DNA from: a virus
Lineage: Duplodnaviria; Caudoviricetes
Virus record (IMG/VR): IMGVR_UViG_3300020043_002908
Span: 1-24,602 of that record
Direction: 5' to 3' (one strand)
DNA length: 24,602 nt
The notes under the pieces were generated by a model. The model was given only the letters and a program-made list of their open reading frames with translations. It was not told the DNA's origin and made no database searches. The position numbers and the translations under genes were made by a program. Positions 4,407 through 20,547 of the stretch are shown piece by piece (positions within the stretch are counted from its first letter, which is position 1; each line of letters begins with the position of its first letter).

Positions 4407-4695
4407 AGTCGCCTGATCTCCTTCGTCGTCGTATCTCGTTGCGTCGCTCGACCGTTGTCAGTCCGCCCCACACGCCGACACAATCGTTCTTGATTGCAAA
4501 GTCTAGACAACTTTGGCGCACCACGCAGATGTCGCAAAGTTTCTTCGCTTCGCGCACCGCATGCAAATATCTTTCGTGAAAGAAGATGTCGGTGCCTTCG
4601 CCACGGCATGTGCCGTACTGTTGCCATTCTGGTCGGAGTAGTTCGAATACATTCTTCGACTCCGACCAGACATCAACAATTCCGTAGTCGCCCAT
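4321..4695 (-). CDS. whiB: WhiB-family Fe-S transcription factor
   Basis: C-x23-C-x2-C-x5-C plus GVWGGLT..ER and a basic tail; start reassigned to ATG 4695 (TGATG coupling). Confidence 0.93.
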   Translation of the reverse strand: MGDYGIVDVWSESKNVFELLRPEWQQYGTCRGEGTDIFFHERYLHAVREAKKLCDICVVRQSCLDFAIKNDCVGVWGGLTTVERRNEIRRRRRSGDYVKSTKKKRYARRIAGGEVLPRPRTSKS

Positions 4696-4877
4696 CACTT
4701 GATTTCTTTGATCCAGCGACGCACATAGAACATTGCATAGAAGTTGACTACTGCGTAGATGAATATCTCTATGCCGCTTGCCGGACTTTCTTGCGGTAGT
4801 CGTGGCATGAATAACAGCATCATCCATCCCATGAATATGAACGCCAATGTGAATTTAATTTTCTCTTGCGGTTTCAT
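4695..4877 (-). CDS. Small membrane protein (2 predicted TM segments)
   Basis: AAGGAGG RBS; two hydrophobic stretches. Confidence 0.8.
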   Translation of the reverse strand: MKPQEKIKFTLAFIFMGWMMLLFMPRLPQESPASGIEIFIYAVVNFYAMFYVRRWIKEIK

Positions 4878-4921
4878 TTGTCCTCCTTGGTTAGTAACTC
4901 GCCTATTTATGTTCTAGTGCA

Positions 4922-5485
4922 TTATGGGACAGAAGTGGTGGATGCTTTACAGACCCGCCAATTACAAGGATTCCACGGTTCGAATCCCGACAAGTTATAC
5001 AACACTAGTCCTGCTTTGAGGTTGGTGAGTGGGTCGAGTAGCGGGTCTTGTGTGCAGATGTTTAGTTCTCGGCAGACGGCAGCCCACTTGTTTCTTGATG
5101 GGTCGTAGTTGACGCCGTTGATCTGCAAGAGTCCTGTGTCGGAGCGATGATTCCATTCGGAGACGCCTGTGATGTTGCAGTCCTTGTCAACCATGTCGCC
5201 ACCGCGACGGTTCGGACAGCCACCTGATTCACGCAACACGATTTGTGTGAGTTTCGGGATGGCATGGTCGGGCCAGCCTGCCTGTTTGGCGAGCGACGGT
5301 AGCCAAGAGGTGTCGCCGTGTCGGTATCGGATCGGCTGTATCGGGTCGAGCCTGTCTGCCTGCCAGAGAGGCTGTAATGCGATTACAGCGACGCTGGAGT
5401 GCGTTGGTGCGGAGACTGCCTGAGCTATGCCAAGGCTGACTGTGAGACTTGTGAGTGTTGCCAGGATTGCGGTCAATATGCGCAT
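4922..5485 (-). CDS. Secreted lytic transglycosylase (SLT/lysozyme-like fold)
   Basis: N-terminal signal peptide; RESGG (catalytic Glu), DTGLLQIN, LLDPLTNLKAG, GFEPW motifs. Confidence 0.88.
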   Translation of the reverse strand: MRILTAILATLTSLTVSLGIAQAVSAPTHSSVAVIALQPLWQADRLDPIQPIRYRHGDTSWLPSLAKQAGWPDHAIPKLTQIVLRESGGCPNRRGGDMVDKDCNITGVSEWNHRSDTGLLQINGVNYDPSRNKWAAVCRELNICTQDPLLDPLTNLKAGLVLYNLSGFEPWNPCNWRVCKASTTSVP

Positions 5486-5586
5486 CGTGGTCCTTTCGTT
5501 AAGTGCAGGAATGACGCAACCAAGAAGGAGGTGACTTGGTTGCGGTGCTACATCAACCCTAGTGGGGAGCGCACCGTTCTACCTTA
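5486..5586 (-). promoter_or_regulatory. Putative promoter and structured 5' leader/sRNA with anti-Shine-Dalgarno loop
   Basis: -10-like TAAGGT (5581-5586); CGGTGC...GCACCG stem; perfect 10-bp stem 5515-5544 with loop UCACCUCCUU; TCCTGCAC; GAAAGGA RBS. Confidence 0.6.
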
Positions 5587-5603: not shown

Positions 5604-5621
5604 ACCGCTATCTTTAGCGGT
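5604..5621. terminator. Inverted repeat after the lysis region (possible terminator or operator)
   Basis: ACCGCTA-4nt-TAGCGGT immediately after the stop at 5624; no U-tract on the coding strand. Confidence 0.35.
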
Positions 5622-5623
5622 TT

Positions 5624-5878
5624 CTAGATTTTTATTTGTAGATCCATCAACACTTTGATGTTCTTGACCATGCCGACGGGTATGTGTAGAACATGGTCTA
5701 TTGAGTCTTCGTTGCGTGACTGGTAGAGGGTGACATGGTCGGGTTTGCCTCCGTCGCCTGTGGCGAGTAGGAAGCCGACTGATTCAACTTCGGCTGGGTC
5801 GGTGTCGAGGTCTTTGATGTTGATCCACGATTCTGCACCGCTGTGCGCATCGTGCCAGGTGACGAGTACGACCGTCAC
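5624..5878 (-). CDS. Small phage protein of unknown function
   Basis: VLVTWHDA...W...SVGFL...IPVGMV pattern that I recognise from other phage hypothetical proteins; GTGA coupling. Confidence 0.8.
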   Translation of the reverse strand: MTVVLVTWHDAHSGAESWINIKDLDTDPAEVESVGFLLATGDGGKPDHVTLYQSRNEDSIDHVLHIPVGMVKNIKVLMDLQIKI

Positions 5879-6951: not shown

Positions 6952-7120
6952 GGTCTTCTCCGTCCTTCGTTAATACTCCTGCCAAGTGTAGTGCGAGTGA
7001 CAGGAATGTGAAGAATAACGCCCAATTCTGGAGGCTTCCTGACAGGGTCATGATGGTGATTGCGGATGCACCGAGTGTGAATCCGAGTGCGAATAGTTCA
7101 TCTTTTAGTTTCTTAAACAT
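6929..7120 (-). CDS. Small 2-TM membrane protein
   Basis: Two hydrophobic helices; TAATG-coupled to the PA14/mucin gene. Confidence 0.75.
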   Translation of the reverse strand: MFKKLKDELFALGFTLGASAITIMTLSGSLQNWALFFTFLSLALHLAGVLTKDGEDHGARSED

Positions 7121-8721
7121 TAGTTGCTTCTTCTGCGCAGGCTGGCTCCTACCGCCACAAGTGTATTTGATACGGCGACCAGTGTTCTACGCTCGCCGAC
7201 AGGTATGGTCTGGCCGACCATCTGGAAGGAATCGAAGACGCCCGCAAAGACATTAATGGTTTCTTGGAACGCCTTCTTGACTTTGGTTGGTGCTTCATTG
7301 ATGACTGCGACTAATTCTTCGGCCGCTTCAAGCGTGAGTTCTTCGACCACGATCTCTTCAAAGATCGCTTCGGCTTGTTCTTCGGTTACTGCCGCCAACA
7401 CTTCAGGACTTGACGCGATACTCACCGCCTGATCACTCGTGATGTCGGTCGCCAACACCTCCTCGATTGCTGCAACGATCTGTGCCGGTGCCGCCTCGGC
7501 AAGCACTTCAAGTATCTGCTCAACTTTCGCATCGCTGATCGGCTGATCGGCGACAATGTCTAGTTTGATTTCGGGTAGCGTTGTGGTCGATGAACTCTGT
7601 ACTACTGGTGGCAATGTTTCTTGGATACTTGTTCCTGGCGACGGCTGTGATGTTGGCGTACTTGTTTCAACGGGCAGAGTTGGAAGAACGGAAGACGGAA
7701 CTGGACGAGATACAGGCATGGTGGGATCAGGCTCGACAGGAACGGTTGTAGATGTTGTCGTCGCAGGTTCGGTCGTTGTCGTTGCAGGTTCGGTTGTGGT
7801 TGTTGAAGTGGTTGTTGAAGGTGAGGTTGTAGATGTTTCTTCAACTGTGGTTGAGGGTTCAGGCAAAGAAGTGGTGGTCGTTGTACTTGAAATTACTTCG
7901 ACGACTGGTTCGCTAGTCGTCGTGGTCTGAGGAGGAGTCCAAGGTGCTTGCGTTGTGGTCGGAGCTAATGCAACAGTTGTGGTCGTCGTTGTCGTGGTAC
8001 TTGTCGTTGATGTGGTTGTGCTTGACTGAACTGGTTCGCTGGTTGTGGTCGTTGTTGTGGGAAGGAGTGTTGTAGATGAGGTCGTTGATTCTGGTGGCGA
8101 TGTTGTTGTGGTTGGCGTTGTACTCGTACTGGTGGTTGAAGAAGAAGTAGTAGTCGAAGTAATTGTGGTCGACGAAGTGGTTGTGGTAGTTGCGATCGCT
8201 TGTTGAGTGAATGCCGCGTCTGGCACTATTTCCCAGCCTTGGTTGTTGATGTTCCATGCGAGCATCATGCACGAGTTCCCGCCATGCTCGTACATCCAAA
8301 CCTGAAAGGCATTACTTCCAGGTTCGAGTATTAGTTCGCCTGACATCATCCATGTGCAGCCCTGGTCGTTCCAGTTGCCCCACGAATAATTGCCAAGCTG
8401 CATTGTGCCGCCGTCATCTGTGGCGAGCATCAACTCAATCGTGTCATGTTCCGGTATGTCAATGAAGCCTGTCATGTGGATCATGAATAGGTCATAGGTG
8501 CAGTCTTCAAATAGTTCGTAGTCGTAGTTGCGGTTAATGTTATTTTCTATTTCGGTTCCGCAAACTAGATATTCGGTGTCCGACTGAATCGGCGGAATCT
8601 CGTCAATCGTGTAATACGAAGTTGCGATACCAAATTCTGTTTCAGCTCGGACAAGTGTCGGCCAAAACGATAGAACGATCGCAGGAAGCGGAATCAGCCA
8701 TCTGGTTAGATGGCGACCCAC
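7120..8721 (-). CDS. Secreted PA14-domain protein with mucin-like Thr/Ser/Pro stalk
   Basis: Signal peptide (..LVRA|E); PA14-like TGFIDIP, LATDDG, WNDQG, MYEHGG motifs; ~200-aa T/S/P tract; acidic helical region; weakly hydrophobic end plus RRR. Confidence 0.8.
   Translation of the reverse strand: MGRHLTRWLIPLPAIVLSFWPTLVRAETEFGIATSYYTIDEIPPIQSDTEYLVCGTEIENNINRNYDYELFEDCTYDLFMIHMTGFIDIPEHDTIELMLATDDGGTMQLGNYSWGNWNDQGCTWMMSGELILEPGSNAFQVWMYEHGGNSCMMLAWNINNQGWEIVPDAAFTQQAIATTTTTSSTTITSTTTSSSTTSTSTTPTTTTSPPESTTSSTTLLPTTTTTTSEPVQSSTTTSTTSTTTTTTTTVALAPTTTQAPWTPPQTTTTSEPVVEVISSTTTTTSLPEPSTTVEETSTTSPSTTTSTTTTEPATTTTEPATTTSTTVPVEPDPTMPVSRPVPSSVLPTLPVETSTPTSQPSPGTSIQETLPPVVQSSSTTTLPEIKLDIVADQPISDAKVEQILEVLAEAAPAQIVAAIEEVLATDITSDQAVSIASSPEVLAAVTEEQAEAIFEEIVVEELTLEAAEELVAVINEAPTKVKKAFQETINVFAGVFDSFQMVGQTIPVGERRTLVAVSNTLVAVGASLRRRSN
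7575..8190 (-). repeat. Low-complexity Thr/Ser/Pro coding repeats (ACN-rich)
   Basis: Runs such as TTTTTSSTT and TTTTEPA x2 within the 533-aa ORF. Confidence 0.9.
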
Positions 8722-13662: not shown

Positions 13663-14376
13663 TCAGTTAGCGAGCATCCGTTTACGCAGTTCAGCCCACT
13701 CGCGTTGCATGTCTTTGTGAACTTCCGCTTGCGTCATCCCGTCATACTGCGACAAATCGACTGGCGCATCCCACCACTTCGGATCAAGAACACATCGCAT
13801 CGGATTACCGCGACGCGGTTGACGAGTCGTGCGAATGTTTGGTGTGGAGAATGTGCGTGTCGGTGCAGCGATGTCGGTGATCGTCGGGTCAAGGAATCGC
13901 CAACCTGAATGATGTGTGTGGAATGCTTGACCAGCTTCGTGCTGTGGCAGATAGAAGATGCGGGCTGGGTCTTTGGTTGCTGGGTCGCCTTTGAGACGAA
14001 GACGCTCATGTGTCTCATACCAAACCTCTTCCCAGTTTTGTACTGGCACGGCCTGCTCGAATGGGACAACAACATGCCAGTGAGGATTGTTGTCGCGATG
14101 CGACCAGGTTGTGTAGGCGAAGTGTATATACGATCCGAGATCAGCCTGCTTGAATGCTTCACCGTCAAGGTCGGCAACCAATGCCCACACATGCGACACA
14201 TTACGGTTGCCACGAGTTGTGTGATCACGGTATGTGACTGGCGAATATAACTTGCCGTCAGACTTCTGCTCGCGTTCTTGATGGTTGCCGAGCATCGCTG
14301 CGAAGTCCATCCAAGATGTGGCGATGGTCTTCGGATAGACGGATTTGACCGATGGGAAACCGACGACTTCAAACAT
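13663..14376 (-). CDS. Primase-polymerase-like protein (AEP superfamily catalytic domain)
   Basis: LVADLD (DxD), YTTWSH, WHVVVP, DPATKDPARIFYLP motifs; own AGGAGG RBS. Confidence 0.8.
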   Translation of the reverse strand: MFEVVGFPSVKSVYPKTIATSWMDFAAMLGNHQEREQKSDGKLYSPVTYRDHTTRGNRNVSHVWALVADLDGEAFKQADLGSYIHFAYTTWSHRDNNPHWHVVVPFEQAVPVQNWEEVWYETHERLRLKGDPATKDPARIFYLPQHEAGQAFHTHHSGWRFLDPTITDIAAPTRTFSTPNIRTTRQPRRGNPMRCVLDPKWWDAPVDLSQYDGMTQAEVHKDMQREWAELRKRMLAN

Positions 14377-20510: not shown

Positions 20511-20547
20511 AAGCCTCGGCAAGTCCTGCACGACCTTGCCGAGGCTT
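20511..20547 (-). promoter_or_regulatory. Perfect 13-bp hairpin with loop GUCGUGCAGGA
   Basis: AAGCCTCGGCAAG / CTTGCCGAGGCTT followed by TCCTGTATCTGCAC; could also act as a weak terminator after the capsid gene. Confidence 0.75.

Follow-up and report, generated by a model that had tools for sequence, protein, structure and literature searches.

What is a copy of the 3' tail of 16S rRNA doing in the loop of a hairpin ahead of a phage gene? The question is raised by the window, by which we mean the whole stretch of DNA that was analysed, a 24.6-kb virus record in which every recognisable phage gene lies on the minus strand. The hairpin, here called P2, has the lysis block on one side and the WhiB/nuclease block on the other and lies in a 138-nt gap that separates an 84-aa gene at the end of the lysis block from the gene of a 187-aa SLT-like protein (Table 1).

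Table 1. Features of the leader and of the neighbouring genes (positions in the window)
Feature	Position	Strand	Remarks
84-aa hypothetical gene, ends late/lysis block	5624..5878	-	upstream neighbour in both phage groups
Palindrome, CGCTA-N4-TAGCG core	5604..5621		about 20 nt upstream of the -10 hexamer; TAGCG half invariant in 27/27 aligned relatives, other half not
-10-like hexamer TAAGGT, predicted promoter	5581..5586	-	predicted start near 5575
P1, predicted 5'-terminal hairpin, UU bulge on 3' side	5544..5575	-	double-sided changes in 6/9 tested pairs
P2, 10-bp stem presenting anti-SD loop	5515..5544	-	18 stem-loop variants
P2 loop UCACCUCCUU, same as 16S rRNA 3' tail	5525..5534	-	predicted unpaired, at least 0.92
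Linker, 19 nt (relatives 16-20), loop 3 of possible pseudoknot	5496..5514	-	invariant CUGCA
SD GAAAGGA of SLT-like gene	5491..5497	-	ATG at 5485; 5 bp possible with loop, 7 bp with actinobacterial 16S tail
187-aa SLT-like gene preceded by leader	4922..5485	-	hydrophobic N-terminus, predicted lysozyme-like/SLT domain, invariant RES motif
60-aa membrane protein gene	4695..4877	-	strong SD AAGGAGG at 4888-4882

Genomic setting and likely host

The genes of the window include those for a capsid protein, a prohead protease, glycosyltransferases, a VanY-type lysin, WhiB, a RusA-like resolvase and an exonuclease. The phage WhiB points to an actinobacterial host. The single close genome match is a phage contig (L316) binned in an Acidimicrobiales MAG, a binning that is weak as evidence for the host. 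Neither a relative of the SLT protein nor a real DNA match was found among GenBank phages. The phages form an uncultured freshwater family whose hosts are likely actinobacteria.

The original prediction had called the gene behind the hairpin a transglycosylase. The 187-aa protein, predicted to be a peptidoglycan-cutting (SLT-like) enzyme, has a predicted lysozyme-like/SLT domain, a call based on Pfam matches below the cut-offs and on a language-model search. The AlphaFold model of the protein has a mean pLDDT of 70.7, and a PDB sequence search with the SLT alignment returned no match.

Several other features of the window were recorded. Group-1 relatives (see below) conserve a TGTMCTAYAACTGATAC-like motif in the gap that follows the SLT gene and precedes the 60-aa gene (4890-4921 in the window), likely a second promoter or a binding site. 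At 20511-20547, between the capsid gene and a glycosyltransferase gene, lies a perfect 13-bp hairpin that is likely a terminator or a processing site. A 533-aa mucin-like protein with long Thr/Ser runs and no Pfam match is encoded at 7120-8721, adjoining the lysis genes, and the tail block has within it, at 13663-14376 between the tape measure and tail genes, a primase-like gene (PHROG 9765) whose SD is strong.

The hairpin and its loop

On the minus strand, positions 5515-5524 and 5535-5544 form the perfect 10-bp stem around a 10-nt loop that the original prediction had described. Its further claim, that the loop corresponds to the segment called anti-Shine-Dalgarno (anti-SD) at the 16S rRNA 3' end, holds with 10/10 identity. 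In minus-strand letters the loop is UCACCUCCUU, in plus-strand letters AAGGAGGTGA, and UCACCUCCUU is present in 19 of the 19 complete 16S ends from the class of the MAG, which is the likely host class (20 loci, one of them incomplete). Directly 3' of all 19 complete ends (L399-L418) these rRNA loci carry AAGGAG, which could fold back on the anti-SD in precursor rRNA.

A perfect 10-bp stem is by itself not rare, being found in 26.5% of 200 dinucleotide shuffles of the window, and the 10-mer of the loop is expected 0.035 times per window; by our estimate the two would coincide by chance with a probability of about 1e-6. Folding of the 93-nt segment gave z = -3.19 on the minus strand against z = -0.76 on the plus strand, which bears out the minus-strand structure. 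In the predicted fold the loop is kept as a single-stranded anti-SD.

Conservation among phages

A search with the SLT protein gave 43 viral loci, 28 of which have the leader, and the hairpin is kept in all 28, with the loop UCACCUCCUU in 27 and UUACCUCCUU in one. A second phage group, group 2, was reached through the upstream gene, the SLT proteins of the two groups being 28% identical. The hairpin is present in all 38 group-2 loci with upstream DNA; its outer stem is again CGCA/UGCG, and its loop has CCUCCUU. This count does not include 4 more distant loci, which differ, and 1 locus without upstream DNA. In metagenomes the complete loop was found, by reading, in 50 of 80 loci, the rest being cut short or having other leaders. 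The collection holds 64 distinct leaders, 42 of group 1 (the group of the window) and 22 of group 2, with 18 variants of P2.

A loop that varied among relatives had been named beforehand as grounds for giving up the original prediction, and the loop proved to be conserved. CCUCCUU occurs in 64/64 distinct leaders; the pattern behind this count required CCUCCUU, and no protein-anchored leader of the same architecture is without it. Over all leaders the loops read UCACCUCCUU, UUACCUCCUU, UUUCCUCCUU or UUCCCUCCUU. The UCACC half is kept in 40 of the 42 group-1 leaders, and in group 2 the loop drifts to UUUCC/UUCCC. The stems vary by paired substitutions and paired indels. Across 20 group-1 leaders 96.4% of cells are paired, against 35-46% when the pairing is slid, and 9 of 17 pairs have double-sided changes, counts of such changes being inflated by the relatedness of the leaders; for P2 alone, tested over 8 pairs, 100% of cells are paired and 3 pairs have double-sided changes. 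What the comparison shows directly is the sequence and its conservation, together with the compensatory stems, the spacing and the complementarity.

Among the matches listed in two context-blind pattern scans, stems of at least 9 bp were confined to this leader family (21 of 120 matches in one scan, 29 of 119 loci in the other), and no free-standing or terminator-bearing copy of the hairpin was found among the matches listed (120 matches; 119 loci). The covariance model R1, run against 151 genomes of the likely host family, matched only a phage contig binned in G001; run on 68 loci, it scored group 2 weakly (E 0.0008-0.09) and missed L027 and a third SLT lineage described below. Most other SLT lineages seen are without such a loop. 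Because all members share one gene order, the link of the hairpin to the SLT gene is partly one of ancestry. Judged by sequence comparison, the hairpin is a real and deeply conserved phage leader motif that displays a copy of the 16S tail.

Two other arrangements were noted near SLT genes. Eight loci (L226, L236, L042, L251, L031, L255, L228 and L033) share a different leader 60 nt before the SLT gene, consisting of ATAG, a hairpin whose loop is often UACU, CCUAUCC(ACC), an SD of the AGGAG type and UUG as the start, with no Rfam match. In L027 (3583-3611; a 98-kb phage) and in L388 (near 1664) a terminator-like hairpin stands directly after the SLT gene, between convergent genes, and its loop UCACCUCCGAG is again anti-SD-like.

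Organization of the leader

P2 is, by its position in the aligned sequences, the second hairpin of a leader of about 90 nt between a fixed -10-like hexamer and the SLT-like gene. The hairpin before it, P1, is also conserved and lies inside the interval of the original prediction, where it had been overlooked; its sequence is largely different in L186, L333 and L334. TAnnnT is the actinobacterial -10 consensus, and a TAnnnT hexamer stands 40-43 nt before P2 in 20/20 group-1 leaders in four sequence variants, which suggests a promoter with a transcript starting at P1. These alignments also agree with the earlier placing of TAAGGT (5586-5581) upstream of the hairpin at the boundary of the late and early blocks. 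A sigma-70 scan did not call TAAGGT as a promoter. The palindrome farther upstream is possibly an operator, for the phage WhiB or another regulator, or a plus-strand terminator.

Downstream, the distance from the end of the loop to the AUG is 33-40 nt in 20 group-1 and 17 group-2 leaders. The group-1 SD, GAAAGGAC, is invariant in 20/20 leaders, and that of the next gene varies freely. The U-tract by which a rho-independent terminator is recognised is absent after P2, the 3' flank being variable and U-poor, and a terminator scan did not call the hairpin. A discrete RNA of 70-90 nt, which the original prediction had proposed to look for, is not indicated, since the hairpin has no U-tract behind it and the element leads without exception into the SLT-like gene. 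Two further candidates were dropped. The promoter region bears short likenesses to the flanks of 16S helix 45, which differ from one relative to another and were put down to chance; a different helix, which UGAY and GUYA would form around P2 and which was noticed by eye, is broken in several relatives.

The RNA data were Logan contigs of 4 of 24 listed runs, in which strand, ends and level are not readable. The phage group is present in contigs of four RNA-library runs. Run X2 covers 30/30 bins at depth 107-875, which fits DNA, and the other three are patchy. In run X9 a 297-nt contig with a depth of about 5000 (window 5010-5236) loops back within a relative's SLT coding region, over about 267 nt, where neighbouring DNA has a depth of 0-4. 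This contig is probably an amplification artefact and less probably a circular RNA.

Proposed pairing of the loop with the downstream Shine-Dalgarno sequence

Our leading reading, which we hold tentatively and at somewhat less than an even chance, is that the loop pairs with the SD sequence on its own predicted transcript and so damps translation of the SLT-like enzyme. H-type pseudoknots that mask an SD are a known design in the SAM-II and preQ1-II riboswitches. In group 1, UCCUU of the loop would fold onto AAGGA of the gene as an H-type pseudoknot, with a stem 1 of 9-10 bp, UCACC as loop 1, a stem 2 of 5 bp, no loop 2 and a loop 3 of 16-20 nt. The fold onto the downstream AAGGA that the original prediction had proposed is therefore geometrically possible, and these lengths (5 bp; L1 5 nt, L2 0, L3 16-20 nt) fit an H-type fold in 20/20 group-1 leaders, but the pairing amounts to only 5 bp. 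A pseudoknot so marginal, which the 7-bp pairing of the ribosome could open, would tune translation and not block it. Transcription, the promoter, every pairing of the loop and the effect on translation are what we infer here.

By calculation the loop binds its own RBS at -4.6 kcal/mol in 18/18 group-1 loci, where the real 16S tail reaches -9.3 to -9.5; the group-2 values run from -3.2 to -10.3, with the loop binding more weakly than the tail in 14 of 16. None of the SLT genes behind these leaders has an AGGAGG SD, which would give a masking loop its best grip. Group 1 keeps both loop and SD invariant. The SDs of the group-2 SLT genes differ (GGAG, GAAAGG, AAAAGAG, CAGGAC and others) while CCUCCUU stays the same, so that in group 2 loop and SD do not covary. 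No cis partner was found for the UCACC half of the loop.

The group-2 leader (L273-L311, about 130 nt before the SLT start) also has a -35-like TGGACA/TAGACA and further conserved hairpins. It contains two -10-like hexamers about 35 nt apart with an invariant AAGGAGG between them (21/21), and in 17/17 leaders an uninterrupted run of 7-14 pairs is possible between this AAGGAGG and the loop region. In the transcript from the upstream one of the two predicted promoters, the only one that would include it, AAGGAGG would capture the loop and free the RBS. With nested folding the probability of this loop/upstream pairing is at most 0.03, kissing loops being outside the reach of the model. By analogy with the STAB-SD idea, that of a ribosome-binding mRNA stabiliser, the AAGGAGG leader could also serve as such a stabiliser. 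An upstream ORF behind AAGGAGG was rejected, as no more than 7 of the 22 distinct leaders have an ATG at SD spacing, these fall into three frames, and no ORF is conserved.

A third, unrelated SLT lineage comprises 7 loci (L030, L247 at 2667-2751, L252, L253, L271, L381 and L393). Their leader is structured and has a 5' segment resembling an anti-SD, for which direct pairing is predicted with the SD of an ORF of 30-31 codons (MKP.../MQS...) that precedes the SLT gene and ends at or near its start; only 1 of 19 pairs is double-changed. The arrangement of the sequence suggests a leader peptide with translational coupling.

Thus the fixed spacing to the start, the lack of free-standing copies among the matches listed, the invariant group-1 SD, the cis partner in group 2 and the third lineage argue for a role in cis, and the weakness of the own-SD duplex next to that of the tail, the variation of the group-2 SD and the partnerless UCACC argue against it.

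Alternative explanations

An action in trans we consider rather unlikely on balance: the predicted early leader, whole or processed, would offer a universal anti-SD seed and compete with the 30S subunit for strong SDs of host mRNAs or of phage early genes, in the manner of 6C or cuckoo RNAs, and the SLT gene would escape because its GAAAGG-type SD uses a part of the 16S tail that is missing from the loop. The identity with the tail over all 10 nt, including UCACC, would then be accounted for, as would a loop predicted to be fully open that is bound by its own SD about 5 kcal/mol worse than the ribosome tail is. C-rich 6C loops bind G-rich RBSs with no need of a chaperone (PMC6486639). In four related genomes the early genes bind the loop somewhat better than the late ones (means -5.7 to -7.3 vs -4.1 to -5.0; p = 0.006, 0.038, 0.063 and 0.43), a trend that is weak, comes from automatic start calls in non-independent genomes and is equal for the real tail. 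Against a trans-acting RNA stand the missing terminator and U-tract after P2, the lack of a free-standing copy among the matches listed, the presence of one loop only where cuckoo and 6C RNAs have two to four, and the fact that no specific target was found. The SD of the next gene, that of the 60-aa protein, was rejected as a target, since 47 distinct pairs (11 loci with no recognisable next-gene SD were left out) gave no covariation (observed -12.29, permuted -12.33), and the only occurrence of AGGAGGTG in five relatives is the antisense copy of the hairpin itself. A target other than mRNA is conceivable at long odds: the first early RNA of the phage would be an abundant mimic of the 16S 3' end that, outside its own message, soaks up host factors recognising the anti-SD tail, above all MazF-type toxins that clip it. 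Phage PhiTE, with its pseudo-ToxI, reportedly directs RNA mimicry against a toxin-antitoxin system (PMC3475682), which is a precedent. In the likely host family MazF/PemK genes were found in 125 of 151 sampled genomes (one of them, G232, unpublished), and no MazF was seen in G001 or in many of the small genomes (1.5-2.4 Mb). The published anti-SD cut motifs, CACCU for MazF-mt11 (PMC12274833) and UCCUU for MazF-mt1 (bioRxiv 10.64898/2026.10.23.761202), are both held by the loop, and UCCUU is in 64/64 leaders; however, CACCU is absent from 24 of the 64, and any copy of the anti-SD brings both motifs with it, so that finding them is no independent evidence. A substrate that can be cut moreover inhibits poorly, the fixed spacing to the AUG is left unexplained, and in mycobacteria 16S rRNA was the only target cut by MazF-mt11 (PMC12274833), so that more than the motif is needed.

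Other readings dispense with SD recognition altogether. The pyrimidine-rich loop might equal the anti-SD by coincidence and serve mRNA stability, ribonuclease cleavage or a ribosomal protein (S1) site, an explanation to which we would likewise give little credit. Both groups keep the actual sequences of the outer stem, CGCA/UGCG, and of the flanking motifs, UGAY and GUYA, suggesting protein or tertiary contacts, and the drift of the group-2 loop would be in keeping with such a role; the exact 10-nt identity with the 16S tail and the complementary AAGGAGG of group 2 would be left unexplained. A plus-strand role appears very unlikely, whether AAGGAGGUGA is taken as a small ORF's RBS or as the ribosome sponge of an antisense RNA, and so does a role of the site as a DNA operator. 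AAGGAGGUGA is a perfect SD with TTG or ATG 7-8 nt downstream, and a real small ORF at this place is what the original prediction had set against itself. The frame, of 15 codons in the window, is not conserved, having a stop at codon 4 in L021 and at codon 3 in L024 and a frameshift in L018, and there is no shared antisense -10, since just 3 of 20 leaders have a TAnnnT on the plus strand and its place differs among them; the small-ORF RBS was therefore rejected. The fold is also favoured on the minus strand, where alone the G-U pairs of group 2 work, and paired indels alter the half-site spacing in a way that an operator could not tolerate. That the hairpin has no function at all is hardly credible.

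Comparison with known RNAs

No match at E <= 1 was found in Rfam for the window or for six relatives, and 20 distant SLT loci gave tRNAs only at the gathering score. The leader resembles the SAM-II and preQ1-II pseudoknots in having a loop complementary to the downstream SD and lengths that fit the H-type, and differs in lacking a ligand-pocket consensus, an Rfam match and, in group 2, where the SD varies, covariation of loop and SD, and in having a copy of the 16S tail as its loop. With pseudo-ToxI of PhiTE, a comparison that bears on the toxin decoy only, it would share the imitation of a host RNA by a phage RNA, but pseudo-ToxI consists of tandem repeats imitating an antitoxin, whereas the hairpin is a single copy imitating rRNA.

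The closest likeness is to bacterial sRNAs. Cuckoo (alpha-r14) sRNAs of Alphaproteobacteria are free chromosomal sRNAs with 2-4 hairpins that each carry CCUCCUCCC (PMC4615179). The phage leader has in common with them a stem that varies with compensation and an anti-SD-like loop that stays fixed; unlike them, it has no CCUCCUCCC in its loops, only P2 has an anti-SD loop, and this loop matches the 16S tail exactly and lies in an mRNA leader close to the AUG, outside any Rfam family. The 6C RNA of Actinobacteria, a stand-alone trans-acting sRNA of two stem-loops with C runs (PMC6486639), belongs to what is likely the same host phylum, and its C-rich loop, too, can bind G-rich RBSs without Hfq; in contrast, the phage hairpin has no C6 run, one such loop only and neither terminator nor Rfam match. 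For viral structured RNAs, the catalogue by Fremin (2023; PMC10690425; 10,000 candidates) gave no match in its text and supplements 3-6 and may list the motif in its alignments. No description of an exact 16S-tail copy in a phage mRNA leader was found in Rfam or in the literature searched, of which few subscription papers were within reach. The phage RNA motif is apparently undescribed, the principle of an anti-SD loop being already known from bacterial sRNAs.

Implications for phage biology

A conserved copy of the 16S tail spans phage groups whose SLT proteins have only 28% identity. At 90 nt and with 64 natural variants, the leader is short enough for direct laboratory study in an actinobacterium. 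If the loop acts in trans or as a toxin decoy, host translation would be taken over or protected with an rRNA mimic; the decoy in particular would be an RNA-based counter-defence by rRNA mimicry that keeps translation running. If instead the reading in cis is true, phages of abundant freshwater actinobacteria would hold back a wall-cutting enzyme whose gene comes first in the early block, to which group 2 would add a possible switch by promoter choice.
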